Shown one piece after another: positions 19,631-37,308 of a stretch of 64,000 bases of DNA. Source of the DNA: an uncultured Conexibacteraceae bacterium (lineage in GTDB: Bacteria > Actinomycetota > Thermoleophilia > Solirubrobacterales > Solirubrobacteraceae); NCBI GenBank assembly GCA_963832195.1, contig CAWHTH010000006.1, positions 331,974 to 395,973 on the forward strand. The letters run 5' to 3'. The notes below the pieces were generated by a model that saw only the letters and a program-made list of their open reading frames with translations, had not been told where the DNA came from and did no database searches. Each line of letters opens with the position of its first letter. Within the stretch, counting starts at the first letter, position 1. The translations under genes and the position numbers were made by a program.

Positions 19631-20902
19631 GTGCACGCGCGCGTCGCAGGGTTCCTCGAGCAGGCGCGCACGCTGACGGCGGCGCGCCGCTTCGCCGAGG
19701 CGGAGGGCTTCGAGCGTCAAGCCCGATCCGTCGCCGAGGAGCTGCCGCAGCCGGCTGTCGACATGGCCGAGATCCTCGAGCAGACCGCCGAGCGCCTGAC
19801 CCGGCAGGGCGATGCGGATGGTGCCGATGCCGCGCTCAGCCAGGCGATCGAGGTCCACGAACGGCTCGGCACGACGACCCGCGAGGTCTACGAGCTGCAC
19901 TACATGCGCGCGCTGCTCTCGTTCGTTGCGGAGCGTCGCGACCGTGCCCTGAGCCAGGTCGACGCCGCGATCGCATTCGCCGAGCTCCACCTCGGCCAGT
20001 CATTCCAGCCGCTCGCGCGCGCCCACGAGCTGCGCGAGCGCTGTGTCACTGAGGGGACAGTCCCCTCAGTGACAACGCCGGCGTTCGAGGACGTGCTTGC
20101 CGAGCTCGACGAGCTGATCGGCCTCGCCGCGGTCAAGGAGCAGGTGCGCGCGTACGCGAGCTTCGTGCGGATCCAGAAGCTCCGCGCAGCCGCCGGCCAC
20201 CGGACGCCGGAGCTGACCTTTCATCTTTCTTTCGAGGGCCCGCCGGGCACCGGCAAGACGACCGTCGCCCGCCTGTTCGGGAAGCTGCTGCACTCGCTCG
20301 GCGCGCTCGAGCGCGGCCATCTCGTGGAGACGTCGCGCTCCGGGCTGGTCGCTGGCTACGTCGGCCAGACCGCGCCGCTGGTCGACAAGGTCGCGGACTC
20401 CGCGCTGGACGGCGTGCTGTTCATCGACGAGGCCTATGCCCTCGCTCCCGCGGGCAGCGCCGAGGACTTCGGCGACGAGGCGGTCAGCCAGCTGCTCGTG
20501 CGGATGGAGAACGACCGCGAGCGCCTGGCGGTCGTGCTCGCCGGCTATCCGGAGCCGATGGAGCAGCTGCTGTCCTCGAACCCCGGCCTCGAGAGCCGGA
20601 TCGCGGAGCGCATCCCGTTCCCGCACTACGAGCCGGCCGAGCTGGCGGCGATCTTCCGCCACTTCGTCGAGGAGTCCGATTACGACTTGTCCGAGGCGGC
20701 GTCACGGCGCGTCGACGAGATCGCGGCGCAGCTGCACGCGAACCGCGACGAGCGCTTCGGCAACGCCCGCGCGATGCGCAACCTGTTCGACGACGCGGTC
20801 GCCGCCCACGCATCGCGGCTCGTCGCCGCCGGCGTCGAGTCGGGCCCGGCGCTCAATCTGCTCGAGCCGGCCGACCTCGATGCGGCAGCATCCGAGCAGT
20901 GA
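19631..20902 (+). CDS. TPR-like N-domain plus single CbbX/SpoVK/EccA-type AAA+ ATPase
   Basis: 423 aa. Walker A GPPGTGKTTVARLFG, Walker B VLFIDEAYAL, LAGYPEPM, and the SpoVK/CbbX-type spacing. The 31-nt palindrome is embedded in the interdomain linker. Confidence 0.88.
   Translation: MHARVAGFLEQARTLTAARRFAEAEGFERQARSVAEELPQPAVDMAEILEQTAERLTRQGDADGADAALSQAIEVHERLGTTTREVYELHYMRALLSFVAERRDRALSQVDAAIAFAELHLGQSFQPLARAHELRERCVTEGTVPSVTTPAFEDVLAELDELIGLAAVKEQVRAYASFVRIQKLRAAAGHRTPELTFHLSFEGPPGTGKTTVARLFGKLLHSLGALERGHLVETSRSGLVAGYVGQTAPLVDKVADSALDGVLFIDEAYALAPAGSAEDFGDEAVSQLLVRMENDRERLAVVLAGYPEPMEQLLSSNPGLESRIAERIPFPHYEPAELAAIFRHFVEESDYDLSEAASRRVDEIAAQLHANRDERFGNARAMRNLFDDAVAAHASRLVAAGVESGPALNLLEPADLDAAASEQ
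20044..20074. repeat. 31-nt perfect palindrome TGTCACTGAGGGGACAGTCCCCTCAGTGACA (element copy a), in frame within the AAA+ gene
   Basis: Read directly. Encodes VTEGTVPSVT. Related copies at 24992-25022 (26/31 identical) and 37237-37267 (27/31 identical). Confidence 0.9.
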
Positions 20903-21309
20903 GCGACGCAGACCTCGAGGTCGTGAACCGGGTGTGGGAGGTGTACGAGCGCCTCGGCACCCTCGGAATGGTCGACTTGATCGCCCCAGACGCCGTCTTC
21001 GAGGAATACGGCGGCGGTCCGGAGGCCGCGACCTACGCCGGTCCCGACGGCTTTTTGCAGATGGCCGCCAAATGGGAGACCGACTTCGTCGGCTTGCGCT
21101 TCGTGCGGGTAGGCGACCACGTTGCCCTCGGCAGCGGATTCGTCGCGACGCCCGTGCGGATGGTGGGCAGCGGTCGCGCCAGCGGAGCCGTGGTCGAATG
21201 GGAATTGGTCCAGGGCAACCGCGTGCAGGATGGGCTGCTCACGAACCAGTTCTACGGCGACGACCTCGACGCGATCCGCGCGCGGATGGCCGAGCTACTC
21301 GCCGGCTAG
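20899..21309 (+). CDS. NTF2-like (SnoaL-like) protein
   Basis: 136 aa. GTGA overlap with the AAA+ stop. Pattern VVNRVWEVYE....MVDLIAPDAVFEE... Confidence 0.65.
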   Translation: MSDADLEVVNRVWEVYERLGTLGMVDLIAPDAVFEEYGGGPEAATYAGPDGFLQMAAKWETDFVGLRFVRVGDHVALGSGFVATPVRMVGSGRASGAVVEWELVQGNRVQDGLLTNQFYGDDLDAIRARMAELLAG

Positions 21310-22083
21310 GCGCGCGGCGCCGTCGTGAGGCCGCCGTCGGCGATGAGGCACTGGCCGGTCACATACGACGCTTCCGCCGACAGGAGAAACAGCGCCGCGC
21401 TGGCGACCTCCCATGCGGTGCCCTGGCGTCCGAGCGGGATCTTCACCTGCTCGCGCCGGGCACTTAATCGAGAGGCGGCACGGCCGAGGGGCGTGTCGAT
21501 CAGGCCGGGGTGCAGGACGTTCACGCGGACGCCCGGTGCACCCTCGGCGGCCGCCTGGCGACAGAGCGACTCCAGCGCGGCCTTCGACGCGCCGTATGCG
21601 GGCCAGGGCATCACCTCCCGCGCCGCGACCGAGCCGATCAGGACGATCGCGCCGCCCTCGGCCATCGCCACAAGGCCGTGCTTGCAGCCGGGGAAATGCG
21701 ACCTCAGGTTGACGGCCAACACGCGGTCCCAGTCCTCCACGCTGGTGCCCCGCAGCGCGAAGCCCGCCCCGACGCCGACGTTGAGCACGACGCCGTCGAT
21801 TCCGCCGAGCGCCTCCTGCGCGCCCGCGAACATCGCCTCCGAGGCGGCCGCGTCGGGCGGCGTCGGCGACGAGCACGACAGCTCGTCCGCCTTCCTCCTC
21901 GACGAGGTCCGCCGTGGCCCGCGCGCTCGCCTCGTCGATGTCCGCGACCGCCACCCCGGCGCCCTCGCGCGCGAACAGGACGCACATCGCCCGGCCGTTG
22001 CCGATCGGCGGGTCGTCGAGCCCGTAGTCCTGCTGGCCACCTCCGACGACGAGGATGCACCGCCCCTCGAGACGTCCCGGCAT
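21306..22083 (-). pseudogene. Short-chain dehydrogenase/reductase with an apparent +1 frameshift (or sequencing indel)
   Basis: N-terminal 75 aa are in the frame of ORF 21295..22083 (ILVVGGGQ..GNGRAMCVLFAREGAGVAVADID..AVVLVADAA). The rest is in the frame of ORF 21306..22040 (DAAASEAMFAGAQEALGGIDGVVLNVGVG..YGASKAALESL..). Removing one G from the GGG at 21855-21857 joins them. Confidence 0.8.
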
Positions 22084-23822
22084 CAGTCCTCGAACAGCGC
22101 GTAGCCGTAGGCGCCGCGCTTGTACGCCAGGCGCGCGATCGAGTGCTGGCGGTCGTCGTCGTTGTCCGACAGACGGCGCAGCTCCGACCGCACGCGCCCC
22201 GCCGCGCGTGTGCAGAACGTGTCCGCGATGTAGCGCTCCTGGCCGCTGGCCTCGACGCCCTGGTCCTCGAAGATCGCCGTGACGCGCGAGAGGACGGCGA
22301 TCTGGGCCAGGATGTCGCTCAGCGCGCTCGAGTAGCGCTTGTGCGACAGGCCCTGGTTGATGACGTCCTTGCCGTGCCTGCGCAGCAGCGCCTCGCCGCA
22401 GTCGCGCAGCTGCTTGACCTGGTCGCCGACGGCGTCGGCCAGCTTGTCTACCTCAGGGTGCGCCTTGCTGATGCGATCCGGCCGCACCTCGCGCTTGACG
22501 CGCCCGAACGCGTACTCGGCGATCGTCCCGAGCGCCCCGATCGGGTTCGTCAAGTCCAGATCGCCGAGCTCCTTGAGCTCCTCCCCCAGCGGCTTGAGCG
22601 CGGTCAGCGCGATGTACGAGCGCATCACGTCGTTGGCGCCCTCGAAGATCGGGAAGATGCGGATGTCGCGGACGATCTGCTCGTACGGCTCGTCGCGCAT
22701 GTAGCCCTTGCCGCCCGCGAGCTGGAGCGCACGATTCGCCGCGTACCAGACGAACTCGGTGCCGGTGACCTTGCAGATCGCCGACTCGATCGCGTAGTCC
22801 TCGATGCCGGCGTCGACCATGCCGGTCGTCATGTAGGCCATCGACTCGAGGCCGAACAGGTAGCTCACCATCCAGGCGATCTTGTCCTCGACCATGTCGA
22901 AGTCCGCGAGCGGCTTGCCGAACTGGCGCCGCGTCGTGACGTGGTCGATCGTGAGGTCGATCAGCCGCTTGGCGAGGCCGACCGAGCCCGTCCCGAGGCC
23001 GATGCGCCCGTTGTTGAGGACATGCATCGCGATCTTGAAGCCATCGCCGGGCTCGCCGAGGACGTTCTCGGGCGGCACGCGCACGTCGTTGAAGCGCACC
23101 GGGCAGAGGTGGTTGCCGCGCAGCCCCATCGTGTCGTAGCGCGGGCCGGATTGGTCGAGGCCGTCCATCCCCTTCTCGAGGATCAGCGCGATGTGGCTGT
23201 CCTTGCCGTCGATCTCGCAGCGCGCGAACGTGCACAGCACGTGGCCGCGGCAGCCGTTGCCGATCCACCGCTTCTCGCCGTTGAGGACCCAGGACCCGTC
23301 CGGCTGCTTCACCGCGCGGCTTTGGATGTTGTAGGCGTCCGACCCCGCCTCGGGCTCGGTCAGCGCGAAGGCCGCCAGCTTGCGGCCGCTCACGAGGTCC
23401 GGCAGGAACCGCTCCTTCTGCTCGTCCGTGCCATACAGCGAGATGCCCTTGAGGCCGATCGACTGGTGCACCCCCAGCGCGATCGTCAGCGAGCCGTCGA
23501 CCTGGCCGATCGCCTCGAAAACGCGCGCGTAGCCGGTCTGGCTGAGGCCCTGGCCCCCGTACTGCTCGTCGACGTACAGGCCCATCACGCCGATCTCGCC
23601 GAGGTCGCGGAAGACCTTGTCGTCGATCTTTCCTGTCTCGTCGATCTCGCGGGAGTTGATGTTCGCGGCCGCGTACGCGCGGAAGTCCTTGATCAGGCGC
23701 CGGACCTTCTCGGCCTCCTCGCCGCGCGGGATCGGATAGGGGAAGACGATGTCCTCGTGGATCTCGCCGAGCGCGAGAGCCTTGGAGAAACTCGAGACAG
23801 CGGTGGGGGCATCGACGCTCAT
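22083..23822 (-). CDS. Long (VLCAD/ACAD9-like) acyl-CoA dehydrogenase
   Basis: 579 aa with ALTEPEAGSDA, EKRWIGNG, IFPIFEGANDV and an extra C-terminal helical domain. The stop overlaps the SDR start by 1 nt. Confidence 0.92.
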   Translation of the reverse strand: MSVDAPTAVSSFSKALALGEIHEDIVFPYPIPRGEEAEKVRRLIKDFRAYAAANINSREIDETGKIDDKVFRDLGEIGVMGLYVDEQYGGQGLSQTGYARVFEAIGQVDGSLTIALGVHQSIGLKGISLYGTDEQKERFLPDLVSGRKLAAFALTEPEAGSDAYNIQSRAVKQPDGSWVLNGEKRWIGNGCRGHVLCTFARCEIDGKDSHIALILEKGMDGLDQSGPRYDTMGLRGNHLCPVRFNDVRVPPENVLGEPGDGFKIAMHVLNNGRIGLGTGSVGLAKRLIDLTIDHVTTRRQFGKPLADFDMVEDKIAWMVSYLFGLESMAYMTTGMVDAGIEDYAIESAICKVTGTEFVWYAANRALQLAGGKGYMRDEPYEQIVRDIRIFPIFEGANDVMRSYIALTALKPLGEELKELGDLDLTNPIGALGTIAEYAFGRVKREVRPDRISKAHPEVDKLADAVGDQVKQLRDCGEALLRRHGKDVINQGLSHKRYSSALSDILAQIAVLSRVTAIFEDQGVEASGQERYIADTFCTRAAGRVRSELRRLSDNDDDRQHSIARLAYKRGAYGYALFED

Positions 23823-23837
23823 ACGCCGACCCTACCC

Positions 23838-24086
23838 CTAGAACGGCGTGTCGAAGTCCTCCTTCGGGCGCGGGTCCGTCTCGTCGCCCTGGAACGCCGC
23901 GAGGCCGCCGAGGATCATCAGCAGCGTGGCCAGAAAAAGGATCGCGATCCCGGTCGCGACCACGCGCGGGCTGCGGGCGATGTGGCCCATGATCGCGACG
24001 ACGACGCCCATCGCCATCAGGCCGAGCACGGGCGCGGCGGGCACGTCCCCGGAGGCGGCGATCACGAGCGCCGCATCGATGACCAT
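23838..24086 (-). CDS. Small two-TM membrane protein
   Basis: 82 aa with two clear hydrophobic helices. 15 nt upstream of the acyl-CoA dehydrogenase start. Confidence 0.45.
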   Translation of the reverse strand: MVIDAALVIAASGDVPAAPVLGLMAMGVVVAIMGHIARSPRVVATGIAILFLATLLMILGGLAAFQGDETDPRPKEDFDTPF

Positions 24087-24112
24087 CGCGGCATCCTAGA
24101 ATTCCGCGCCCG

Positions 24113-24994
24113 ATGCCCGTCGAGCCCGCATCCGTCGAGGAAGTCGCCGCAGGCCTGCGCGCCACCGGCTACCTGCCTGGTGAATCGACCGCGCTCGTCA
24201 GCTTCCTGGCCGCGAAGCTCGGCAAGCCGATCCTCGTCGAGGGTCCCGCGGGCGTTGGGAAGACCGAGCTGGCCAAGGCGCTGGGCCGTTACCTGAAGCG
24301 CACCGTCATTCGCCTGCAGTGCTACGAGGGCCTCGACGAGGCGAAGGCCCTGTACGAGTGGAACTACCGCAAGCAGCTGCTGCGCATCCAGGCCGAGCGC
24401 GAGGGCACCGGCTGGGACGAGGTCCAGGACGACATCTTCGGCGAGGAGTTCCTGCTCCAGCGCCCGCTGATGACCGCGATCTCGTCCGCCGAGCCCGTCG
24501 TCCTGCTGATCGACGAGATCGACAAGACGGACCAGGAGTTCGAGGCGATGCTCCTGGAGGTCCTCAGCGACTTCCAGATCTCGATCCCGGAGCTCGGCCG
24601 GATCGAGGCGCGCACGCAGCCGGTCGTGCTGCTCACCTCGAACAACACGCGCGAGCTGACCGAGGCGCTCAAGCGCCGCTGCCTCTACCTCTGGCTCGAC
24701 TACCCCTCGCTGGAGCACGAGCTCGCGATCGTGCGGCTGCACACACCCGAGCTGCCCGACACCGTCGCGCGCAAGCTTGTCGAGGTGATCGCGATGGTGC
24801 GCGACCTCGACCTCAAGAAGCCGCCGAGCATCGCCGAGTCGATCGACTGGGCGCGCGCGCTGCTGCTCCTCGGCGCCCAGGACATCGATGCCCAGATGTT
24901 CACCGACACGATGTCGCTCATCGTCAAGCACCGAACCGACCTCGACGTCGTCGCCGAGCGGGTCGGAGTAAAGCTCGGTGCCCCCCTCGTCTGA
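24113..24994 (+). CDS. MoxR-family (CoxD-like) AAA+ ATPase
   Basis: 293 aa. Walker A LVEGPAGVGKTELAKA, Walker B VVLLIDEIDK, LTSNNTRELTEALKRRC. Confidence 0.92.
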   Translation: MPVEPASVEEVAAGLRATGYLPGESTALVSFLAAKLGKPILVEGPAGVGKTELAKALGRYLKRTVIRLQCYEGLDEAKALYEWNYRKQLLRIQAEREGTGWDEVQDDIFGEEFLLQRPLMTAISSAEPVVLLIDEIDKTDQEFEAMLLEVLSDFQISIPELGRIEARTQPVVLLTSNNTRELTEALKRRCLYLWLDYPSLEHELAIVRLHTPELPDTVARKLVEVIAMVRDLDLKKPPSIAESIDWARALLLLGAQDIDAQMFTDTMSLIVKHRTDLDVVAERVGVKLGAPLV

Positions 24995-25022
24995 CACTCA
25001 GGGGCCTGTCCCCCCAGTGACA
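24992..25022. repeat. 31-nt palindromic element copy b (TGACACTCAGGGGCCTGTCCCCCCAGTGACA)
   Basis: Begins on the MoxR TGA stop. Same length as copy a and 26/31 identical to it. In the frame of ORF 24978 it encodes DTQGPVPPVT. Confidence 0.8.
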
Positions 25023-25128
25023 CGGGGGCTGGCCGCCCGCCTGCTCGAGTTCGGCGAGGAGCTGCGCGCGCGAGGGCGTCGCGCTCGGCACCAGCGAGCT
25101 GCTCGACGCGTTCCAGGTCCTCGAGCAC

Positions 25129-26382
25129 GTGCCCTGGGCGATACCCGAGGACTTCCGCGAAGCCCTGTCGGCGACGCTCGCCAAGTCGCCCGAGGACCGG
25201 CGCGTCTTCGAGCTCGTGTTCGACCGCTTCTTCTTCCGCGCCGCCGAGCTGGCGGCCGTGCGCGAGGGTGTCCAGGAGGGCGGCGGGATATCCCCCGAGG
25301 ACGCCGGCCAGCTCAACATCGAGGAGCTCAAGCGCCAGATCGCGGCAGCGATCCGCGACGGCAACGAGGGCGCCATGCGCGACCTCGCGCGGCTGGCGAT
25401 CGCGGCGTTCGGGCGTCAGGGCGAGGGGTCGGGCGTCATCGGCGTCGACGTGCAGCGCATCCGGCGCGCACTGCAGCTGCGCGGCGACCCGCAGCCGGAC
25501 CTCTCGCCCGAGGATCCGCGCCGCGACGGACTTCCGCGCGACGAGATCCGCCGCTTCGAGGCGATGCTGCGACAGGAGCTCGAGCGCTCTCAGATCGAGC
25601 GCACCGAGACGCTTCCGCCCGCCCGCCCGCTGAACGAGCTCGACCGCGCGCTGCCCTCAGGGCCGCTGCAGGACCTGGCCGCGGTGCACCGCGTCGTGGC
25701 GCAGCTCAAGCGCAGGCTCAAGACGCAGGGCCAGGAGCAGCGCGGGCGCAAGCGCCGCGCCGCCGTCGACATGCGCAAGACGATGCGCGCGTCGCTCGAG
25801 TACGGCGGCGTCCCCGTGGTCATCAAGTCCAAGCCGATCCGCCCGCGGCGGCCGGAGATCTTCGTCCTCTGCGACGTGTCGACCTCGGTGACCAGCGCTT
25901 CGGTCTTCTTCCTGAGCGTGCTCCACGCGCTCCACGACGCGTTTCGCAAGATGCGCTCCTTCGTGTTCATCGAGCGCATCAGCGAGGTCACCGACATCTT
26001 CGAGAAGGAGCGCGACTTCAAGGCCGTCTCGGAGGCGATCGGCCGCGACGCGGGCGTCGCCGACATCAGCGGATACACCGACTACGGACGCGTCTGGAGC
26101 GAGTTCCGCGAGCAGGTGGAGGACGAACTGCACCCGCGCGCGACGGTGATCGTGCTCGGTGACGCGCGCACGAACGGCCGCGACCCGCGCGCCGACATCT
26201 TCGCCCAGGTCGCCGAGAAGGCCGGCCGCACGTTCTGGCTCAATCCCGAACCACGGCTGTACTGGAACTACGGTGACTCCGTGATCGCGGCCTACGAACA
26301 GCACTGCGAGGCCTACGAGTGCTGGACGACGAGCCACCTCGAGGAGTTCGTCAAGGCGCTCACGCGGCCGATCCACCGCTAG
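25129..26382 (+). CDS. VWA-domain (CoxE-like) partner of the MoxR ATPase. The conserved N-terminus lies upstream in another frame.
   Basis: 417 aa listed ORF. MIDAS motif FVLCDVSTSVTSAS. Upstream, the frame of ORF 24978 reads GLAARLLEFGEELRARG and this frame continues VALGTSELLDAFQVLEHV. Together they form the usual CoxE-like N-terminus (see finding). Confidence 0.85.
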   Translation: MPWAIPEDFREALSATLAKSPEDRRVFELVFDRFFFRAAELAAVREGVQEGGGISPEDAGQLNIEELKRQIAAAIRDGNEGAMRDLARLAIAAFGRQGEGSGVIGVDVQRIRRALQLRGDPQPDLSPEDPRRDGLPRDEIRRFEAMLRQELERSQIERTETLPPARPLNELDRALPSGPLQDLAAVHRVVAQLKRRLKTQGQEQRGRKRRAAVDMRKTMRASLEYGGVPVVIKSKPIRPRRPEIFVLCDVSTSVTSASVFFLSVLHALHDAFRKMRSFVFIERISEVTDIFEKERDFKAVSEAIGRDAGVADISGYTDYGRVWSEFREQVEDELHPRATVIVLGDARTNGRDPRADIFAQVAEKAGRTFWLNPEPRLYWNYGDSVIAAYEQHCEAYECWTTSHLEEFVKALTRPIHR

Positions 26383-26397
26383 GATCGCCAAAAGTCG

Positions 26398-26490
26398 AAT
26401 CAGGGGGGCTCGCGGAAGCGGGCTGAGATAGCGCCTCCGGATCCCGGCGCTGACCCTTCGAACCTGTGCGGTAATGCGCGCGGAGGGAGC
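26398..26490 (+). promoter_or_regulatory. TPP (THI-box) riboswitch
   Basis: CAGGGGGGCUCGCGGAAGCGGGCUGAGAUAGCGCC...GCGCUGACCCUUCGAACCUGUGCGGUAAUGCGCGCGGAGGGAG contains the conserved CUGAGA, ACCCUU.GAACCUG and GGUAAUGC...GGAGGGA blocks. The GGAGGGAG RBS is part of the 3' end. Downstream is a thiamine-precursor-type ABC importer. Confidence 0.85.
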
Positions 26491-26491
26491 G

Positions 26492-27193
26492 ATGACGGCA
26501 GTGCAGATGGACGGAGTGCGCCGGGCCTACGGCCCGGTCCTCGCCGTCGACGGCGTCTCGCTGCACGCTCGCGAGGGAGAAGTCGTCGCGGTCGTCGGGC
26601 CGTCCGGCTGCGGCAAGTCGACCCTGCTGGACCTCGTGTGCGGCCTCCAGCGGCCCGACGCCGGCACCGTGGAGGCGGACCGCGCCGTGCTCATGCCACA
26701 GCGGGACCTGCTGCTCCCCTGGCTGACGGCGCTCGACAACGCGGCCCTGCCGCTGCGGATCGCCGGGCTGGCCCGTGACGCGGCGCGCGAGCTCGCCCAT
26801 CCGGTGATGAGCGAGCTCGGCCTCGGCGGCTTCGAGCACGCCCGGCCGTACGAGCTGTCAGGAGGCATGCGCCAGCGCGTGGCCTTCGTCCGCACGCTCC
26901 TGGCCGGCGCGCCGGTCCTGTGCCTCGACGAGCCGTTCGGGGCGCTCGACGCGATCACGCGCGGCGAGGCGCAGAGCTGGCTCGCGGGCGCGCTCGAGCG
27001 CGAGCCGAGAACCGTGGTGTTCGTGACGCACGACGTCGAGGAGGCGGCGCTCCTCGCCGACCGCGTTCTCGTGCTCTCCGCGCGCCCAGGGCGCGTCGTC
27101 GGGAGCATCGACGTCGACCTACCCCGCCCCCGCGTCGCCACGGATGCGGACGTCGTGCAGACGCGCGCACGGGTGCTGGAGGCGATGCGCTGA
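26492..27193 (+). CDS. thiZ: ABC transporter ATP-binding protein (NitT/TauT family, ThiZ-like)
   Basis: The ATG at 26492 follows the GGAGGGAG RBS. GPSGCGKSTLL, LSGGMRQRVAF, LCLDEPFGALD. Confidence 0.85.
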   Translation: MTAVQMDGVRRAYGPVLAVDGVSLHAREGEVVAVVGPSGCGKSTLLDLVCGLQRPDAGTVEADRAVLMPQRDLLLPWLTALDNAALPLRIAGLARDAARELAHPVMSELGLGGFEHARPYELSGGMRQRVAFVRTLLAGAPVLCLDEPFGALDAITRGEAQSWLAGALEREPRTVVFVTHDVEEAALLADRVLVLSARPGRVVGSIDVDLPRPRVATDADVVQTRARVLEAMR

Positions 27194-29819: not shown

Positions 29820-29836
29820 CGAGTATCCCGCAGCCG

Positions 29837-30154: not shown

Positions 30155-30166
30155 CGAAGCCGGATG

Positions 30167-30793
30167 CTACCCGGCTCCTCCGGCGCCACGACGCCGCGGG
30201 GCTGTCCGGAAGACGTGGTCCCAGTACGGCGCGCTGACGCCGAAGCCGCGCTCGTCGTCCTGGAAGTGGTGGCGCATGTGCAGCTCGCGCAGCGCCCTGC
30301 CCATGGGCGTGCGCGGCGTGTGGTGATGCAAGTGGTAATGCAGCATGTCGTAGGCCAGGTACCCGACCAGGAACCCGCCGCCGAACGCCACGGCGGCGTC
30401 GTAGCCGAGCACCGCCCAGAACAGGCCCAGGAACGCCAGCGCCAGTGGGATCGACGCCGACGGCGGCATGACGAGCCTCAGCGGGTCGTTCGGGTGGTCA
30501 TGGTGGACGCCGTGGATCATCCAGTGCATCCGCGCGCCGACGCCGTCGTCGGGCTCGAAGTGGAAGACGACCCGGTGCAGCCAGTACTCGGTCAGGGTCC
30601 AGAAGACGTAGCCCGCGAGAGCGACGGCGATGCCCACCTGCGTGCCGAGGCGCTCCATGCCGGTGACCAGCAGGACTGCGATCGCCGGGCTGAAAAGGAC
30701 CAGCGGGACGGCTGGATGCACACGCGTGAAACGGTCAAGGACGACCGAGTCGAACATGGGCGGCGAAGCCCGCAGTTGCTCCGAGCGACGCAT
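30167..30793 (-). CDS. Fatty acid hydroxylase superfamily protein (FA2H/Scs7-like)
   Basis: 208 aa with the four His boxes in FA2H arrangement: HRVVFH, HGVHHDHPNDPLRLVMPP, YDMLHYHLHHH, HMRHHFQDDERGFGVSAPYWDHVF. Confidence 0.85.
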   Translation of the reverse strand: MRRSEQLRASPPMFDSVVLDRFTRVHPAVPLVLFSPAIAVLLVTGMERLGTQVGIAVALAGYVFWTLTEYWLHRVVFHFEPDDGVGARMHWMIHGVHHDHPNDPLRLVMPPSASIPLALAFLGLFWAVLGYDAAVAFGGGFLVGYLAYDMLHYHLHHHTPRTPMGRALRELHMRHHFQDDERGFGVSAPYWDHVFRTAPRRRGAGGAG

Positions 30794-30840
30794 CGTTGCC
30801 CAACTCTACCGCCCCTGCGGACAGTCCTGTTAGGGCTGCC

Positions 30841-31962
30841 TTAGAGCCCGCGTTCGTACATCCGGTAGCGCTTGACGATGCGGCCGTTCATCGCCTCCAT
30901 GCCCCGGTTCATCGCCTCGTTGGTCTCCAGGATCCAGCCCATCTCGCCGCCCTTTATGCGGGCATGGCGAGCGGCCGTGTCGAAGTGCTCGGCGTACAGG
31001 AGCGCCGCGACGCCGGTGTGCTGGTGCTCGGGCTTGACGCCGAGGAAGCCGACCCGCACGCGGTCGATGATCTTCGCCCTGCGCAGGAAGTGCCACCAGC
31101 CGAACGGGAGCAGCCGCCCCCGCATCCGCTCGAGCACCTGGTTTATGTCCGGCACGGTGATCGCGATCCCCACGGGCTCGCCATCGCTCTCGGCGACCAT
31201 GAACCAGTTGCGGTCGAAGACGAGCTGCAGCTCCTGGGCGTACGCGTCGAGGTCCTCCTTCGAATACGGCACGAAGCCCCAGTTCCGGCGCCAGGCGCGG
31301 TTGTAGATCTCGCCGAACAGGTCGAGGTCGCGGCGCAGGCGCCGGCGCGACATCCGCCGCAGCGTGACGCCGTGCTGCGACTGGGCCTGCTCGGCCAGCT
31401 CGAAGAGAATCGGTAGCGCCTGCTCGCGGTCAGCGACCTCCAGGTTCCACATGTACAGGTCCACCACCTTTTCGAGGCCCGCCTCCTCGCAGCGGCGCTG
31501 GTAATAGGGCGGATGCCAGGGCTGGCGCACCATCGGCCGCAGGTCGTGGCCGTCGATCACGATGCCGCTCTCGTCGTTCATCGCGAAGTCCGCCGGGCCG
31601 ACCATCCGCTGCATCCCACGCTCGCGCAGCCAGGCCTCGGCGGCGGCCAGGAGCGGCTCCAGCACGTCGGACTCGTCCTCGAGCTCCAGGAACCCGAACC
31701 AGCCCCAGCGCTCGCCGTGGTGCTCGTTGTAGGCGTGGTCGACGTGCGCGCTGATGCGCCCGACGACGCGCCCGGCGCGACGCGCCAGGAACAGCTGCGC
31801 CTCGCCGTGCTTGAAGAACGGCCCGAGCCGTCGGCTCAAAAAGATCCGGCGCTCGAGCCGCAGCGGCGGCACCCACGGCGTGCCCTCGTGGAGGCGGAAC
31901 GGCAGGTCGATGAACGCCCGGCGATCGCGGCCGCTCGCGACCGGAGTGACCTCGATGGGCAT
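30841..31962 (-). CDS. Large (373 aa) GNAT-family N-acyltransferase
   Basis: N-terminal FIDLPFRLHEGTPWVPPL..FFKHGEAQLFLARR.GRVVGRISAHVD. C-terminal GNAT motif A region GFLGVKPEHQHTGVAALLY. Confidence 0.75.
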   Translation of the reverse strand: MPIEVTPVASGRDRRAFIDLPFRLHEGTPWVPPLRLERRIFLSRRLGPFFKHGEAQLFLARRAGRVVGRISAHVDHAYNEHHGERWGWFGFLELEDESDVLEPLLAAAEAWLRERGMQRMVGPADFAMNDESGIVIDGHDLRPMVRQPWHPPYYQRRCEEAGLEKVVDLYMWNLEVADREQALPILFELAEQAQSQHGVTLRRMSRRRLRRDLDLFGEIYNRAWRRNWGFVPYSKEDLDAYAQELQLVFDRNWFMVAESDGEPVGIAITVPDINQVLERMRGRLLPFGWWHFLRRAKIIDRVRVGFLGVKPEHQHTGVAALLYAEHFDTAARHARIKGGEMGWILETNEAMNRGMEAMNGRIVKRYRMYERGL

Positions 31963-31989
31963 GGGCGGGGCACCCTATAGGGTGTCCAC

Positions 31990-33264
31990 GTGGCCCAGCG
32001 TGCCGCCGTCGATGTCTTCGAGAAGGCCCGCACGCACGAGCGCGCCGAGATCCTGCGCGCCGCCCGCGAGGCCGACGTGGTGCCCTATTTCCGCCTCCTC
32101 GAAGGTCCCGCGCGGCCGGTCGTAGAGATGGAGGGAGCCCAGCGGATCATGCTCGGCTCCAACAACTACCTCGGGCTCACGGCCGACGAGCGCGTCATCA
32201 ACGGCGCCCGCGAGGCGCTCGAGCGCTACGGCACCGGCCTGACCGGCTCGCGGCTCCTGAACGGCACGATCCCGCTGCACCTCGAGCTCGAGGCCGAGAT
32301 CGCGGACTGGATGGGCACCGAGGACGCGATCGTGTTCACGACGGGCCACCAGGCCAACATCGGGACGCTCGGCACGATCCTGCAGCCGGGCGACACCGTC
32401 GTGGCGGACTCCGGCGACCACGCCTCGATCCTCGATGGCTGCCTGCTGTCGCGCGCAAAGCTGCGGCCGTTCCGCCACAACCGGCTCGACAAGCTCGAGC
32501 GGGCGCTGGAGCGCGCTGCGGACGACGGCGGCGGCGTCCTCGTCGTCGTCGACGGCGTCTTCTCGATGGAGGGGGACATCGCCCCGCTGCGCGAGATCGC
32601 CGATCTGGCTCAGGCCCACGGCGCGCGGCTGATGGTCGACGAGGCTCACGGCGCCGGGGTCCTCGGCGCGCGCGGGGCCGGGACCGCCGAGCTGCTCCGG
32701 GTCGAGGACCGCGTCGACCTGCGGATGGGGACGTTCTCGAAGTCCCTGGCCTCGTGTGGAGGCTTCATCGCCGGCAGCGCCGAGGTGGTCGAGTTCCTAC
32801 GGATCCAGTCGCGCGCGTTCCTATTCACCGCCGCGGCCGTGCCGGCCGCCGTCGGCGCAGCGCTGGCGGCGCTGCGCGTAGTCCGCAGCGACGACGGCCG
32901 CGAGCTGATGGCGCGCGTGCTCGACAACGCGCGCTACCTGCGCGATGGCCTCGAGGAGCGTGGCTTCGCGGTGGTGGCACCGCAGCCGATCGGCGACGGC
33001 GGCGACATCGTCACGCCGATCGTGCCCGCGCTCGTCGGCGACGACTGGAAGGCCGCCCTGCTCTGGAAGGCGCTCTACGACGAGGGCGTCTTCGTCAACA
33101 CCGCGCTGCACCCCGCGGTGCCGCCCGGCGGGGCGCTTCTCCGCACCAGCGTCATGGCGACCCACGACCGCGCAACGCTCGAGGAGGCGCTCGATCGCTT
33201 CGCGTCGGTGAAGGCCCGCTTCGAGTCGGAGCACGGACCGTTGCCGGCTCCCGGTGCACACTGA
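31990..33264 (+). CDS. Alpha-oxoamine synthase, serine-palmitoyltransferase-like (PLP-dependent)
   Basis: 424 aa. YFRLLEG, MLGSNNYLGLT, YGTGLTGSRLLNGT, DSGDHASILDG, VVVDGVFSMEGDIAPL, MVDEAHGAGVLG, GTFSKSLASCGGF (PLP Lys). The GTFSKS and YF..E features fit SPT/ALAS-type enzymes better than BioF/KBL. Confidence 0.85.
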   Translation: MAQRAAVDVFEKARTHERAEILRAAREADVVPYFRLLEGPARPVVEMEGAQRIMLGSNNYLGLTADERVINGAREALERYGTGLTGSRLLNGTIPLHLELEAEIADWMGTEDAIVFTTGHQANIGTLGTILQPGDTVVADSGDHASILDGCLLSRAKLRPFRHNRLDKLERALERAADDGGGVLVVVDGVFSMEGDIAPLREIADLAQAHGARLMVDEAHGAGVLGARGAGTAELLRVEDRVDLRMGTFSKSLASCGGFIAGSAEVVEFLRIQSRAFLFTAAAVPAAVGAALAALRVVRSDDGRELMARVLDNARYLRDGLEERGFAVVAPQPIGDGGDIVTPIVPALVGDDWKAALLWKALYDEGVFVNTALHPAVPPGGALLRTSVMATHDRATLEEALDRFASVKARFESEHGPLPAPGAH

Positions 33265-33352
33265 TCGCCGACGTTGTTGCGCACTATCTGAGCTCTCGCG
33301 CGGCCGCCTCAAAAAAAGGGCGCTCTGAGCGAATCTTGCACTCGTTTACCAG

Positions 33353-33382
33353 TTGACCACAACTAGCCGCCTCGCGTAGCTT
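33353..33382 (+). promoter_or_regulatory. Candidate housekeeping-sigma promoter (TTGACC-N18-TAGCTT)
   Basis: Read directly in the lower-GC part of the 300-nt intergenic region. It would give a roughly 180-nt leader for the gene at 33565. Confidence 0.3.
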
Positions 33383-33564
33383 GCGCACCGCGTCGCAGGC
33401 ACTGCCGGGGAATGCAATCCGGCCCAGAGGGAGCGGGAGAAGTGGGAGGTCGCTCCAGGGTCGAATTGGCTTGTCGGGGATCCACCGGTCACGCGTCTGC
33501 GTCCGCATGCACGCACTAATCGAGAGGGAGCTGCTCGCCGTCCGGCGGGCGGTCAGGAGGACAG

Positions 33565-33951
33565 ATGACTGCAGTCGCGACGATTGCCCCCGGCCCGCAG
33601 TACATGCGGGCGCTTGCACGCGCCAACGAGGTTCGCCTCGCCCGCGCCGAGCTCAAGCGCCGAGTGGCCGACGGGGAGATCACCGCCGCGAGCGTAGTCC
33701 TGGAGTGCCCGTGGGAGGCGGAGTCGATGACCGTCGCCGACCTGCTCACGAGCCAGCGCCGCTGGGGCACGACCAGGTGCCGGAAGTTCCTCCAGTGCAT
33801 TCCCATGTCCGAGAACAAGACGATCGGCTCGATGACCGAGCGCCAGCGGCTGGCCATGTCCCAGCTGCTGGCGACCGTCTCGAGCGGTGCGCCGGCACGG
33901 GCCGACGTGCAGCCGGCGTTCGGGGTTTCGTTCGCGGGGATGCCTGCTTAG
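33565..33951 (+). CDS. Actinobacterial IHF-like (mIHF/sIHF-type) DNA-binding protein
   Basis: 128 aa. GGAGGA RBS. ARANEVRLARAELKRRVADGEI....MTVADLL.S....G....RKFL...MSENKTIGSMTERQR is collinear with mIHF. Family call is from memory of the motif pattern. Confidence 0.5.
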   Translation: MTAVATIAPGPQYMRALARANEVRLARAELKRRVADGEITAASVVLECPWEAESMTVADLLTSQRRWGTTRCRKFLQCIPMSENKTIGSMTERQRLAMSQLLATVSSGAPARADVQPAFGVSFAGMPA

Positions 33952-33994
33952 AGGGAGCGTCCGCGCGCTGGGGCCGGCATTTCGATGGCCGGCC

Positions 33995-34390
33995 TCAGCG
34001 CGTCGCGATCTCCAGCAGGTGTCCGTCGGGATCCCGGAAGTAGATCGAGCGGAAGCGCCCGCGCTCGAAGACCTCTGAGCAGGGCACGCTGCGCGAGTTG
34101 AGGTAGTCGCGCCAGGCCGCCTGCTCTGCCGCCGAGTCCACGGCGAACGCGAAGTGGTGGGTCGCGCCGCGCCCCTGGCGGCCCTCCTCCATCTGCGGGT
34201 ACTCCATGAACGACACGAGCGTCCCCGCCGCGCCCTGGGCGTCGCCGAACCAGAAGTGGCGCGCGCCGGGGTCGTCGTCGTTGGCGCCCTCCTGCACGAG
34301 CGCCAGCCCCAGGATGTCGCGGTAGAACGCGGTCGTGCGCTCGAGGTCGGCGACGATCGCCGTCACGTGATGCAGGCCGGAGAGCCGCAT
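33995..34390 (-). CDS. VOC-family (glyoxalase/bleomycin-resistance/dioxygenase) protein
   Basis: In-frame ATG at 34390 gives MRLSGLHHVTAIVADLERTTAFYRDILGL...HHFAFAV...IYFRDPDGHLLEIAT. The rest of listed ORF 33995..35053 is shadow sequence. Confidence 0.85.
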   Translation of the reverse strand: MRLSGLHHVTAIVADLERTTAFYRDILGLALVQEGANDDDPGARHFWFGDAQGAAGTLVSFMEYPQMEEGRQGRGATHHFAFAVDSAAEQAAWRDYLNSRSVPCSEVFERGRFRSIYFRDPDGHLLEIATR

Positions 34391-34446
34391 GCGGGGCGGG
34401 TCCGGGTTCTCGGGCGACGCCGGCGGGGGCGGCGTTGGCAGCTGGC

Positions 34447-34932
34447 TCACGCGCGAAAGCCTAGACCGCCGCTGCGGCGCATGAACGCCCTGCGCAAGAG
34501 CGTGAACGCGCCCGCGAACACCGCGACCGCCCACGCGAGGATCACGGCCTGAGGCAGCGACGTCAGGTAGAACAGGGGCAACGCGGCGACGATCGCACAG
34601 ATGCCCGCGAGCAGGCCCGAGTGGGAGCGAAAGCCGGCGAAGTGCTCGCGGACGGCCAGCTCGCCGGCGGAGAGGGAGATGAGCGTGATGCCGCAGGCGA
34701 TCAGGACGCCGCGCCGGTCCCCCGTCACAAGGAAGCCCCAGACCAGCAGCACGAGCGCGATCAGGATGCACAGCTCGTTGAGCGGGAACGGCGACCAGGG
34801 CGCCTGCGGCGCCTCCTCCATCCGCGCTCGGCGGTCCGGGACGCGCGGCGGCGCGGGGCGTGCCGCGGGCGCGGCAGCGGGGTCGCGCGTCGGCGCGGCG
34901 GTGGTCGCGCGCTTGCGCGAGCGTCGGCCCAT
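34447..34932 (-). CDS. Integral membrane protein (4 TM), unknown function
   Basis: 161 aa. Basic/Pro-rich N-terminus followed by four hydrophobic helices. Confidence 0.55.
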   Translation of the reverse strand: MGRRSRKRATTAAPTRDPAAAPAARPAPPRVPDRRARMEEAPQAPWSPFPLNELCILIALVLLVWGFLVTGDRRGVLIACGITLISLSAGELAVREHFAGFRSHSGLLAGICAIVAALPLFYLTSLPQAVILAWAVAVFAGAFTLLRRAFMRRSGGLGFRA

Positions 34933-34943
34933 GGGCGCGGATG

Positions 34944-35351
34944 CTACGAGGTGGCCGCGGCGGCGAGGGCCGCTTCGCGGCTACGGAACCAGACCACGCG
35001 TGTGACCTTGCCGTCTCGCACCGTCCAGAGGCCCCACTGCGGCTCTTCCACATCGGCCCCGCTGGCGCGTCCGCGACCGCGCATCGTCACGACGGAGATC
35101 ACCTGCGGCCCGGCCGCGAAGACCTCCTCGAGGTCATAGCGAACCCCCGCGAACACCTCGTAGATCTCCTGGAAGAAGCGCCGCAGGTCATCGTGTCCGC
35201 GCATCACCCTGCCGCCGGTCACCTGGCCCACCGGCGTGCCGGCCGTGTGCCATTCGATGTCCGGGTCGTAGAGGTCCAAGACGGTCGCCCTGTCCCCGCG
35301 CGCGAGCGCCTCGTACACCCTGCGCACGACGTCGACGGGCTGCCCGGCCAT
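34944..35351 (-). CDS. NTF2-like (SnoaL-like) protein
   Basis: In-frame ATG at 35351: MAGQPVDVVRRVYEALARGDRATVLDLYDPDIEWH..GHDDLRRFF.. This is the canonical SnoaL-like N-terminus. Confidence 0.75.
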   Translation of the reverse strand: MAGQPVDVVRRVYEALARGDRATVLDLYDPDIEWHTAGTPVGQVTGGRVMRGHDDLRRFFQEIYEVFAGVRYDLEEVFAAGPQVISVVTMRGRGRASGADVEEPQWGLWTVRDGKVTRVVWFRSREAALAAAATS

Positions 35352-35371
35352 GCCGAGAAGGCTACGAGGTG

Positions 35372-35848
35372 TCAGGTGGCTAACGGGCAGCCCGACGAGA
35401 GCTTCACGTGCCACCACCCGGCGAGCATCCCGATGATGCCGAGGCGGGGCTTGACCTGCCAGACGCCGCAGCCGCCCTCGCCGAGGGCGGAGTTCGGGAG
35501 ACGCTGGAACTTGAAGCGGTGCGGCTCCGCGAGCATCCGCTCGAGCAGCACGCGGTTGTGCTCCCGGGCCTCGCCGCGCTCGTCGAGAACGCGGCGCGCG
35601 TCGGCGACGCGCTCCGACAGCGAGTCGCGCAGCGTCTCGAGCTCGCCGAGCGACAGCAGGCGCGGCCCCCCGGGCCCGGCGACACCGAACTCCAGCGGCG
35701 TGAACGGGAACGCGGAGACGACGCAGTCGGCCAGCTGACGCTCCAGGCGCGCGATCTGGTCGCGCAGCGAGCGGCGCGCCGCACGCAGATCCTCGGTCCC
35801 GACGGGGCCGAGAGAGAGGCCGCCAGCGCGTTCGTGGATCACGACCAT
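35372..35848 (-). CDS. Conserved hypothetical protein with a Cys-containing C-terminal motif
   Basis: 158 aa. Coiled-coil centre. C-terminus GCGVWQVKPRLGIIGMLAGWWHVKLSSGCP. No family assignment. Confidence 0.55.
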   Translation of the reverse strand: MVVIHERAGGLSLGPVGTEDLRAARRSLRDQIARLERQLADCVVSAFPFTPLEFGVAGPGGPRLLSLGELETLRDSLSERVADARRVLDERGEAREHNRVLLERMLAEPHRFKFQRLPNSALGEGGCGVWQVKPRLGIIGMLAGWWHVKLSSGCPLAT

Positions 35849-35872
35849 CTACTACCCGGAGTGTACGCCTGC

Positions 35873-36523
35873 CTAGACGCTGGTCAACGCCTCGGCGGCC
35901 ATCCAGAGCGCCTCCTGCACGTGCACCTCGGGGACACCGGCGACCTGGATGCTCCACAGCTGCATCCGGCGCGTCTGGCCCCCGGGATCGTGAAAGCTCG
36001 ACATCCGCCCGAACAGCTCCGCGACCGGCCCGGCGGCGTCCGCGACCACGAGCCGCCCCACCGGGAGGTCATGGGCGTACTCGTCGGCTCCCAGCCGCTC
36101 CCCCGCGGCCGCCGGCCGGATCCCCAGCGGCCCGTCGAGCCGCTCGCCGTCGACCGCCCAGACGGGGACGCCGGTCTCCGCCACGGCCAGCAGCAGCGAG
36201 TCCGAGAGCCGGTCGCGCGAGCGGAACCCGCCCTGCTTCAGGCGGTTCATCGCGGCCTCCTCGACCGGCGTGCGCGTCGCGTCCGGGTCGAGGCCGACCT
36301 CGCGGTAGAAGATCCGGTAGGCCTGCGGGACGGGCCGCTGGCGCAGCAGGATCGCGTCGGCGCCGCGGAAGCGCGTCGACAGGTAGCCGAGCCGCTCCTT
36401 GAGCGCCTTCGAGCTGCGCCCCGTCCCGGCCTCGATCGGGGCGCCGAGCAGCCGCAGCTCCGGGAACTCCTCGTGGACCCGGTGGTCGACCCAGCCCTCC
36501 TCGAACTCGAGCTCGCCGATCAT
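35873..36523 (-). CDS. Solo B3/B4 (PheRS-beta-like tRNA-binding) domain protein
   Basis: In-frame ATG at 36523 (ATGA overlap with the upstream stop). AYRIFYREVGLDPDATRTPVEEAAMNRL..SLLLAVAETGVPVWAVD matches the B3/4-domain pattern. Confidence 0.65.
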   Translation of the reverse strand: MIGELEFEEGWVDHRVHEEFPELRLLGAPIEAGTGRSSKALKERLGYLSTRFRGADAILLRQRPVPQAYRIFYREVGLDPDATRTPVEEAAMNRLKQGGFRSRDRLSDSLLLAVAETGVPVWAVDGERLDGPLGIRPAAAGERLGADEYAHDLPVGRLVVADAAGPVAELFGRMSSFHDPGGQTRRMQLWSIQVAGVPEVHVQEALWMAAEALTSV

Positions 36524-37308
36524 CGCTCCAGCCGTTTCATCGCTGCCTCGAGCTCCGGCTCGCTCAGCTCGCCGAACGTCGTGTCGACGATACGCCCGCC
36601 CCGCCGCGCGAACGTGATCTGCGGGCAGACCGAGACGCCGTAGACGTTCGACACGCCGCCATCGCGGTCCCAGCCCACGGGGAAACTCCAGCGATGCTCG
36701 CGGATCAGGCCGCGCAGCTTGTCGCGGTCCCCGCGGATCGCCACCGCCGCGGCCTGGACCCGCGGATGGCGGCGCTGGACGCGCTCGAGCACGTCGAGCT
36801 GGCGGACGCACTGCGACCCGCGGTCCGCGAAGAACACGAGCACGACCGGGCCGCGCTCTCTGAGCTCGCACGAGTTCAGGATGTCCGCGCCCCGGACGTC
36901 GCAGGCCGGGCGGCGCCCGACCTCCTTGCTCTCCCCCTCGCGGCCCGTGGCCAGGTTGGCGTCGCCCTCGAGCGACGACAGCACGAGCGGCGCGGCGAAC
37001 GGCGCCAGGTCACCCCCGCTCGTCGGCGCCCGCACGCCGCCATTGGAGATCGCGTTGACCATCGCGACGATGATGACCAGCAGGAACACCACGCCGACGA
37101 ACCACACGTAGCGCGACGAGCCCGGCGGGCGCGGCACCGGTACGGGATCGCCCGGCTTCCGCCCTGGCGTTGGCTCGAAGTCGGGATCGCGGCGGTGCGC
37201 CCAGCGCCGGCGCTGCTCGGCGGCGTCGTCCTCGCGTGTCACTGAGGGGTCTGTCCCCTCGGTGTCATCGGGCTCGAAGTCGAGTGGCCCGCGCGGGTCG
37301 TCGCTCAT
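36520..37308 (-). CDS. Membrane-anchored TlpA/redoxin-like protein with a degenerate active site
   Basis: In-frame ATG at 37308 (ATGA overlap with the MMPL stop). TM helix YVWFVGVVFLLVIIVAMV. Thioredoxin-fold region VVLVFFADRGSQCVRQLD has a single Cys where CxxC is expected. The N-terminal tail contains element copy c. Confidence 0.7.
   Translation of the reverse strand: MSDDPRGPLDFEPDDTEGTDPSVTREDDAAEQRRRWAHRRDPDFEPTPGRKPGDPVPVPRPPGSSRYVWFVGVVFLLVIIVAMVNAISNGGVRAPTSGGDLAPFAAPLVLSSLEGDANLATGREGESKEVGRRPACDVRGADILNSCELRERGPVVLVFFADRGSQCVRQLDVLERVQRRHPRVQAAAVAIRGDRDKLRGLIREHRWSFPVGWDRDGGVSNVYGVSVCPQITFARRGGRIVDTTFGELSEPELEAAMKRLER
37237..37267. repeat. 31-nt palindromic element copy c (TGTCACTGAGGGGTCTGTCCCCTCGGTGTCA), in frame in the redoxin-like gene
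   Basis: 27/31 identical to copy a. On the coding (minus) strand it encodes TEGTDPSVT. Confidence 0.85.

Follow-up and report, generated by a model that had tools for sequence, protein, structure and literature searches.

A family of short hairpin-forming repeats between and within genes of soil Solirubrobacterales

Three palindromic copies and the genes that carry them

The stretch of DNA analyzed here, which we call the window, is 64,000 nucleotides long, has a GC content of 70.6%, and comes from an uncultured Conexibacteraceae bacterium of the order Solirubrobacterales (contig CAWHTH010000006.1). The names of homologs likewise put it in Solirubrobacterales, near Baekduia, Conexibacter, and Solirubrobacteraceae. 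A 17-kb part of the window holds three copies of a 31-nt palindromic element, which we term copies a, b, and c. Copy a lies in the gene for an AAA+ ATPase, copy b at the junction between genes for a MoxR-type ATPase and a VWA protein, and copy c in the gene for a TlpA-like thiol-disulfide oxidoreductase (Table 1). The first-pass annotation that drew attention to these palindromes, made from the sequence alone, gave their coordinates and sequences exactly, as well as their identities to copy a: 26/31 for copy b (five mismatches) and 27/31 for copy c (four mismatches). With up to three mismatches tolerated, 0.00 chance matches are expected in the window, as estimated from 100 dinucleotide-preserving shuffles, and no fourth position in the whole window comes within ten mismatches of the 31-mer. 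When we searched the window with a covariance model of the wider family described below, we recovered only these three copies at 49-51 bits (E ~1e-10), with the next match at 17 bits. Copy a scores about 50 bits on both strands, while copies b and c score 50.6 and 49.4 bits on the plus strand and 29.3 and 30.9 bits on the minus strand, respectively.

RNA folding, which the first-pass annotation had proposed as a check, predicts strong hairpins for copies a and c and for the family consensus (-16 to -27 kcal/mol, z -4 to -6), with copy a reaching -27.4 kcal/mol (z = -6.3). Copy b is predicted to fold only weakly (-11.9 kcal/mol, z = +0.5), and by this prediction its hairpin is a decayed one. 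The bases flanking the copies on their 3' sides are ACGCCGG, CGGGGGC, and TCGGGCT, and no run of T/U stands behind any of the three. An Rfam scan of the whole window matched no family.

We called genes in the window from the periodicity of GC content at third codon positions (GC3), where real frames have GC3 values of at least 0.9. The AAA+ protein that hosts copy a comprises an N-terminal helical region, a linker, an AAA domain (residues 201-331), and an AAA_lid_6 domain (residues 356-416), as assigned by Pfam. Copy a encodes residues 139-148 of this protein, VTEGTVPSVT, in the linker N-terminal of the AAA domain. Copy c makes up codons 15-24 of the TlpA-like gene and encodes DTEGTDPSVT on the minus strand, in a variable acidic spacer of the N-terminal tail that is bounded by the motifs PLDF and RWAHRRDP. 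The AhpC-TSA Pfam match of this host is weak, at 23.4 bits versus a curated cut-off of 26. The peptides and their placement in linker and tail regions are as first described, and other members of the family likewise lie in linkers or loops.

At copy b, the first three bases of the element (24992-24994) are the TGA stop codon of the MoxR gene, whose orthologs stop a few codons later at a TAG. In the frame of GTG 24978, copy b reads DTQGPVPPVT and runs on into the conserved VWA N-terminus, LAARLLEFGEELR. The rest of the VWA gene is in a different frame, opening at 25021, because one extra base is present near 25066 (CTGCGCG[C]GCGAGGGC, compared with the orthologs at loci L039, L040, and L041). 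The frameshift points either to a genuine pseudogene or to an indel made in assembly. P0241, the gene model of the VWA protein in the database, begins only at 25129. A GTG at 25017, in the right arm of copy b, is an alternative candidate for the VWA start. The idea that all three copies are translated or translatable thus stands for copies a and c, which lie in intact open reading frames (ORFs), and is uncertain for copy b because of the alternative GTG and the frameshift as assembled.

The first-pass annotation also read the shared reading frame of the three copies as a sign of behavior like that of Rickettsia palindromic elements (RPEs), and here we disagree. Direct reading of the subtype with TGTCAC or TGACAC ends shows that frame 0 runs TGT-CAC-TGA (or begins with TGA) and that frame 2 ends in ..CAG-TGA. 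Because the unit is palindromic, the same stops appear on both strands, leaving frame 1 as the sole stop-free frame on either strand. The common frame of the three copies is therefore forced by the TGA codons in frames 0 and 2, and is silent on the mechanism of insertion. Frame 2 is the open one in family members that have GCCAC ends and CACTGG or CACTGT variants, and these members use it within genes (PLGGQTPEWR and similar peptides).

A wider family of oriented hairpins

We scanned for the family with the pattern CACTNAGGGGNCNGTCCCCNCNGTG, which fixes 20 bases and matches all three window copies. Among 185,579 species-representative genomes, the scan returned three matching stretches. Two are intergenic 31-nt palindromes of the form TTGCACTSAGGGGACWGTCCCCCCAGTGCAR in a Coriobacteriales metagenome-assembled genome (MAG), and the third lies inside the iron-sulfur (Fe-S) cluster motif of a MutY-like gene in a Solirubrobacteraceae MAG (locus L003). 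In metagenomes, the scan identified 33 soil loci with GC contents of 69-76%, drawn from several sequencing projects as judged by record names, some of which carry a second, adjacent copy. A looser search of the Coriobacteriales MAG (JAUMWN01, 60-64% GC) found seven copies in 16 kb, all apparently intergenic. These include two close pairs, one with its members 8 nt apart and one inverted with 82 nt, including a masked run of N, between them. The element was unmatched in viral contigs, phage records, and plasmid records. The 25-nt core is identical in Coriobacteriales and Solirubrobacterales and is thus common to two actinomycete classes, and the same 31-mers recur at non-orthologous loci (for example L016, L019, and L029). 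These data confirm a real family of small hairpin-forming repeats in soil Solirubrobacterales that extends well past the three sites in the window, with a sister subtype in Coriobacteriales. The possibility that codon usage produced the copies by coincidence, or that they are artefacts of assembly or of adapters, draws only on the general GC richness of the window; given zero matches in shuffled sequence and dozens of independent assemblies that show variation, covarying stems, and preserved host frames, it is effectively refuted.

The window, the 33 metagenome loci, and the one MAG together provide 47 distinct copies of 31-35 nt, with the oriented core CACTSAGGGG-NCNGT-CCCCYCAGTG. Across these copies the apex, GGGG-NCNGT-CCCC with its 5-nt loop, is invariant, and the CACT and AGTG segments are nearly so. 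Two internal positions (S-A versus Y-C) are usually unpaired, in 30 and 24 of the 47 copies; these correspond to column pairs 13-29 and 14-28, which are conserved mismatches. The loop is asymmetric and, like the mismatches, conserved; the unit therefore has a polarity. Outside the core, an outer stem of 3-6 bp is specific to each subfamily yet always complementary (CGC..GCG, TGT..ACA, TGA..TCA, or TTG..CAA). Pairing in its columns is maintained through compensatory changes at column pairs 6-36 (CG 22, UA 18), 8-34 (CG 22, UA 11, GC 7, AU 4), and 5-37 (GC 12, AU 11). The covariation score is 0.244, compared with a shuffle mean of 0.111 (none of 500 shuffles reaches 0.244) and with 0.05-0.12 when pairing partners are slid out of register. 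The hairpin is therefore maintained. Covariation in a palindrome is compatible with an RNA hairpin, a single-stranded DNA hairpin, or copying from arm to arm, and cannot distinguish among them.

This covariation bears on whether the element is a duplex site for a dimeric DNA-binding protein, which could be an operator, a nucleoid-associated site, or a site of the partition type, and which coding DNA merely tolerates. A 25-nt symmetric core that is invariant in two actinomycete classes, and the presence of three copies in 17 kb, would fit such a site. Covariation of the outer stem argues against a fixed duplex operator: the outer bases of each half-site are free to vary as long as they remain complementary, which fits a folded single strand or arm copying better. 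The polarity given by the conserved mismatches and loop would be needless for a symmetric dimer site, and the positions of the copies are not promoter-like, since they are found within unrelated genes or at their 3' ends, across many unrelated contexts and sometimes in tandem. We consider a protein-binding duplex a very unlikely explanation.

We next classified 41 copies by the GC3 and GC2 periodicity of their flanks, which gives approximate gene calls. Many of these copies have a stop codon no more than about 4 nt away or overlap one. At L004, L008, L016, L025, and L032, convergent genes have stops inside the element or within about 4 nt of it, and at L008 (309-339) both convergent genes terminate on the element's terminal TGA/TCA. 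At L027, L019, L018, and window copy b, the element stands behind a co-directional gene in the same stop-proximal manner. Between 8 and 13 of the 41 copies (20-30%) are inside ORFs, with a one-frame coding signal on both flanks, a fraction that appears high for the copies sampled when compared with known repetitive extragenic palindromic (REP) sequences. In-frame insertion with an added peptide is seen for copies a and c and at seven independent metagenome loci. The in-gene copies fall in linkers, loops, and tails, and add about 10 residues. Their hosts (Table 1) were identified by Pfam for L007, L021, L017, and L005/L010, and by alignment to solved structures for MurF and LeuB. Relative to the host gene, seven in-gene copies are in reverse and two in forward orientation, a difference that is not significant.

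The many copies directly after the stops of convergent or co-directional genes, together with their stable hairpins and covarying stem, could also mean that an RNA hairpin is the main selected role of the element, as a 3'-end mRNA stabilizer or as an attenuator or terminator, with the coding copies as by-products. Such a role has been proposed for REPs elsewhere (PMC3733652), and would be compatible with a mobile origin. Termination sits poorly with the lack of a T/U run behind the window copies, as a U-tract is reported to be necessary for mycobacterial RNA polymerase at intrinsic terminators (PMC3993855). The mid-gene copies in MurF, LeuB, and the 2-oxoacid dehydrogenase cannot be terminators, the pairing of copy b is mostly lost, and no Rfam family matches the element. 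An RNA hairpin is therefore unlikely to be the main selected role, although an RNA 3'-end role for the intergenic copies is plausible.

Table 1. Coordinates and hosts of the element copies and of associated features. Positions are those of the window unless another locus is named.
Feature	Position	Strand	Details
Copy a	20044..20074	.	Perfect 31-nt palindrome TGTCACTGAGGGGACAGTCCCCTCAGTGACA, arms 15+1+15
Copy b	24992..25022	+	Degenerate; arms 11/15 complementary; MoxR/VWA junction
Copy c	37237..37267	+ by element orientation (loop TCTGT)	Translated on minus strand
AAA+ ATPase (SpoVK/CbxX-like), host of copy a	19631..20902	+	GC3 0.91
MoxR-type AAA ATPase	24113..24994	+	Pfam AAA and AAA_5
VWA (CoxE-type) gene	24978..26382	+	Conserved N-terminus in frame of GTG 24978
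TlpA/AhpC-TSA-like thiol-disulfide oxidoreductase, host of copy c	36520..37308	-	Membrane-anchored
MMPL-type transporter, upstream of TlpA-like gene	37305..39587	-	Context only, outside the element
(TGACACCCCTGGGGG)n units	9314-9416	in minus-strand ORF 9030-9776	15-nt period, about six units in two blocks
Coriobacteriales copies	L001 4819-4888, 7317-7460; L002 2740-2791, 5274-5304		TTGCAC/ATGTAC-ended subtype
L003 element-like 25-mer	1947-1977 of L003 (CAWJMO010000012.1)		Paired GG..CC extension; encodes RHCGDCPLSA of MutY/EndoIII-like protein
In-gene copy, L007			2-oxoacid dehydrogenase (KGD-like); linker between two lipoyl domains
In-gene copy, L021			Molybdopterin oxidoreductase; within Molydop_binding domain
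In-gene copy, L029			MurF; N-terminal domain; +7 residues vs solved structures
In-gene copies, L017			GT1 glycosyltransferase; tandem pair at domain boundary
In-gene copies, L005 / L010			NAD-dependent epimerase; within Epimerase domain; orthologs, both filled
In-gene copy, L031			LeuB; decapeptide over AKEYPDVE; net +2 residues
In-gene copies, L015			DUF480 protein; C-terminal tail, two copies

Filled and empty sites in close relatives

The alignment of orthologs that the first-pass annotation had called for reveals an insertion polymorphism at copy c. In the 90%-identity cluster of the TlpA-like protein, two members that are 94-95% identical, P0363 and P0362, are shorter by exactly ten residues, TEGTDPSVTR. 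The contigs that encode them, L044 and L045, share ~91% DNA identity with the window over 8 kb and are syntenic with it (mce genes, MMPL, TlpA-like, and B3_4, among others). The filled allele is longer by 30 nt, or 10 codons, and the best alignment of the two alleles places three gaps, of 3, 6, and 21 nt. A third allele, at L046, has a different insert of similar length. An alignment of 18 homologs shows spacers of differing length between PLDF and RWAHRRDP, with the element falling in a gap.

Relatives carry unrelated sequence at the other two sites. The copy a host has only one close ortholog, P0002 at L037, with ~91% protein identity; L037 and L044 come from one and the same farmland sample. 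Its linker, GGAAASPAKVDESAPRDDPEPV, is 66 nt long and unrelated to the corresponding 36 nt of the window, which are made up of the element and 5 further nt. At the MoxR/VWA junction, L039, L040, and L041 hold 55-80 nt of unrelated sequence that encodes a conserved N-terminal extension of the VWA protein ('..SRRAALYG..PPG'), and in the window copy b takes the place of that extension. We found no copy of the element in ~60 kb of DNA from relatives, most of it syntenic with the window. The three copies are thus specific to the window lineage. None of the outcomes that the first-pass annotation had named as refuting its reading was seen. We separately considered a candidate copy at the MoxR/VWA junction of L040, where protein P0306 starts 'VPSVT'; its DNA, GGCCGAGGGTGCCCTCGGTGACG, shows a weak resemblance and receives no score from the covariance model, and we dropped it.

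Together, these data make it probable that the three copies belong to a REP-like palindromic repeat that is, or once was, mobile, and that the in-frame copies are tolerated insertions. In this model, whose mode of spread we infer, new copies would be made at the DNA level by transposition-like or templated insertion, and would be kept only where they are harmless. Such places would be intergenic positions that coincide with a stop codon or directly follow one, and positions within genes where the sole stop-free frame matches the host frame and the ~10 residues land in a linker, loop, or tail. The window lineage would have gained copy a in the AAA linker, copy b at the MoxR/VWA junction, and copy c in the acidic tail of the TlpA-like protein, and the closest sampled relatives are without them. 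Copy b would have given MoxR its stop codon and replaced most of the VWA N-terminal extension.

Several observations weigh against this model. The scan of 185,579 genomes placed the motif in one genome only, plus one probably chance match. In the host and neighboring proteins scanned, which include ORFs beside the seven Coriobacteriales copies and the in-gene hosts, we detected no RAYT, transposase, or HUH nuclease domain, a weak negative given that the scan covered a few kb on short contigs. The 47 copies have no conserved unpaired GTAG or CGTC tag, and their termini are instead paired and covarying. At copy c, the filled/empty alignment shows no target-site duplication, and the difference is not a clean 31-nt insertion, with the empty allele already containing GAGGGG. 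Copy a swaps 66 nt for 36 at a replacement-type junction, and the LeuB copy swaps 8 residues for 10. Judged from these alignments, the junctions look more like replacement or microhomology-guided patching than like cut-and-paste.

These junctions raise the possibility of a self-propagating hairpin that works without a classical transposase. Microhomology-guided templated patching, in which another unit is copied during replication template switching or the repair of a break, would in this case overwrite short stretches of DNA that encode loops and so write ~10-residue cassettes into proteins, including essential enzymes, across Actinomycetota. We regard this as a speculative and rather unlikely proposal. 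If it were true, the absence of tags and target duplications, the replacement junctions at copy a and LeuB, the GAGGGG at copy c, and the recoded MutY motif would be its signatures.

The same features could be produced by a sequence drive acting in place, for example biased gene conversion or a bias like that of uptake sequences, which would overwrite resembling DNA with no discrete insertion. DNA uptake sequences (DUS in Neisseria) and uptake signal sequences (USS in Haemophilus) have cores of 9-12 nt, occur in more than 1,000 copies per genome, and cause no change in length. They often form inverted-pair hairpins after genes, occur also in coding regions at tolerated frames and positions, and replace existing sequence. 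The element resembles them as a short motif with hairpins after genes, tolerated in-gene copies, and replacement of sequence, and differs in being a 31-nt unit with length polymorphism; we know of no competence in its host bacteria. Neither copy a (66 to 36 nt) nor copy c (three gaps) is a clean insertion, and at copy c the empty allele carries CGAGGAGGGG opposite the element's CACCGAGGGG. The LeuB decapeptide retains the P and V of the AKEYPDVE that it overlies. At L003, the Fe-S motif HCGDCPLSA of the MutY-like protein is encoded in an element-like 25-mer with TGT used twice and AGT once, codons that are rare at this locus; three of the four TGT codons of the locus are in this motif. The L003 stretch may be a chance match or a synonymous overwrite by the repeat.

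Other evidence speaks against a drive of this kind. The length at copy c changes by exactly 30 nt, and tandem pairs and intergenic copies would be hard to make by substitution alone. By our own calculation, the scan pattern has a chance rate of ~1.1e-11 per position at 70% GC, corresponding to 1-2 matches expected in GC-rich genomes, and the L003 match is within this expectation. GAG, GGG, and CCC codons are common in acidic and proline-rich linkers, and the microhomology may be a coincidence. We therefore assign in-place drive a very low probability, and continue to favor a REP-like repeat with tolerated in-frame copies.

We made several further observations in the neighborhood of these repeats. 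The stop codon of the MMPL-type gene overlaps the start of the TlpA-like gene (ATGA, 37305-37308), which suggests that the two genes are translationally coupled; the L044 ortholog of the upstream gene is annotated as MMPL. Copy c is only 40-70 nt into the TlpA-like gene. In L038, a more distant relative whose protein P0123 is 84% identical across its C-terminal 62%, homology to the window breaks off ~20 nt away from copy c, and the N-terminal 25 codons and the upstream gene differ from those of the window, marking a synteny or rearrangement boundary near copy c. Two contigs that are 97% identical, L006 and L018, differ by an 829-bp segment (L006 1535-2363; L018 460/461) inserted exactly at the outer edge of an element copy. 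This segment is a gene for a 230-aa protein with an N-terminal hydrophobic segment, and in L018 the element directly follows a ribbon-helix-helix (RHH)/PIN toxin-antitoxin pair.

A further small palindrome in the window has the unit GGGGTGTCACCCCCA, or TGACACCCCTGGGGG when written along the coding strand. It is translated in-frame as (DTPGG)n (..TPGGDTPRGARTATDTPGGDTPGGDTPGG..), and the LysE-type translocator that carries it has these residues in its central loop. This unit shares a GGGG-N5-CCCC mini-hairpin and TGTCAC/GTGACA ends with the 31-nt element, and is the best match to the covariance model outside the family (17 bits). L047, a relative with 93% identity, differs in sequence over the 70 nt that lie upstream of the shared part; these have no such unit, and the contig ends there.

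Place among known small repeats

REPs are palindromes of 20-40 bp whose usual place is beside an ORF's 3' end, where they may contribute the stop codon, and some of which fall entirely inside genes; most of those catalogued are marked by an unpaired GTAG or CGTC tag (PMC3733652). Our element is like REPs and REPINs (PMC3733652; PMC3116915) in that it consists of imperfect palindromes in the 20-40 bp range at many loci, with stem subfamilies, mismatches that confer polarity, and single, tandem, and inverted-pair arrangements. As in REPs, most copies directly adjoin the 3' ends of ORFs that are convergent or co-directional, some donate stops, and a minority is translated within ORFs. It differs in that it is untagged with paired termini, in its longer stem (~13-16 bp with an internal loop), and in its host phylum, Actinomycetota (Solirubrobacterales and Coriobacteriales); Actinobacteria are outside the eight phyla listed for REPs (PMC3733652). 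That no transposase was seen in the flanking DNA scanned does not set the actinomycete family apart, because CGTC-type REPs are likewise without an associated transposase, and how they move is left open in that work (PMC3733652).

The first-pass annotation compared the element to RPEs, and part of this comparison survives. Like RPEs, the element is found in-frame in unrelated housekeeping genes, at sites compatible with the host fold, with a conserved peptide, and it also occurs between genes. Classic RPEs are ~100-150 bp long, add 30-50 residues, and reside in AT-rich obligate intracellular alphaproteobacteria (PMC10969869). At 31-35 nt and ~10 residues, with no sequence relationship to RPEs, unrelated hosts, and a usable frame set by TGA codons, the element is not an RPE. 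In behavior it is closer to the short RPE-4 and RPE-6 types, which have been equated with the CGTC-4 and CGTC-1 REPs, respectively (PMC3733652). Because many copies lie on or at stop codons, "REP-like with intragenic members" is a better description than "RPE-like" (PMC3733652).

[quoted passage not shown] The element resembles them as a small non-autonomous repeat with inverted-repeat symmetry that can form in-frame fusions, and differs in being a single hairpin with no flanking duplication at copy c. Because it has no GTAG/CGTC tag and is smaller than RPEs and MITEs, we assign the element to no named family and file it as a new, untagged REP-like family.

Searches of the full-text literature for variants of the core returned only unrelated human antisense-oligonucleotide work, and searches for Solirubrobacter together with palindromic repeats returned only mentions of CRISPR. 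The element may bear some further resemblances, on which we do not rely: the 38-bp inverted repeats of the Tn3 family (GGGGTCTGACGCTCAGTG), the PafBC promoter motif TGTCAGTG, the DosR half-sites GGGAC/GTCCC (with spacing off by 3 nt), and CsoR-type operators composed of C/G runs. From these searches, neither the actinomycete family and its sequence nor its rather high share of intragenic copies appears to have been described before, in line with the first-pass suggestion of novelty for a GC-rich, Actinomycetota-like genome. The behavior inside genes is not new, because several phyla are already known to have short REPs within genes, with examples in Opitutus, Rickettsia, Thauera, Xanthomonas, and others (PMC3733652).

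Our findings extend the known REP-like repeats by a family from actinomycetes, and point to a source of small indels by which the protein loops of closely related GC-rich soil bacteria come to differ. Because these repeats donate stop codons, and possibly start codons, gene calling can go wrong around them. They may also coincide with changes of synteny among close relatives, which we observed near the element at two loci, as well as with breaks in assemblies, and they provide natural markers for strain typing. If the replacement-like form of the junctions were to hold true genome-wide, this family would be a good system for learning how tag-less REPs without a known transposase move.

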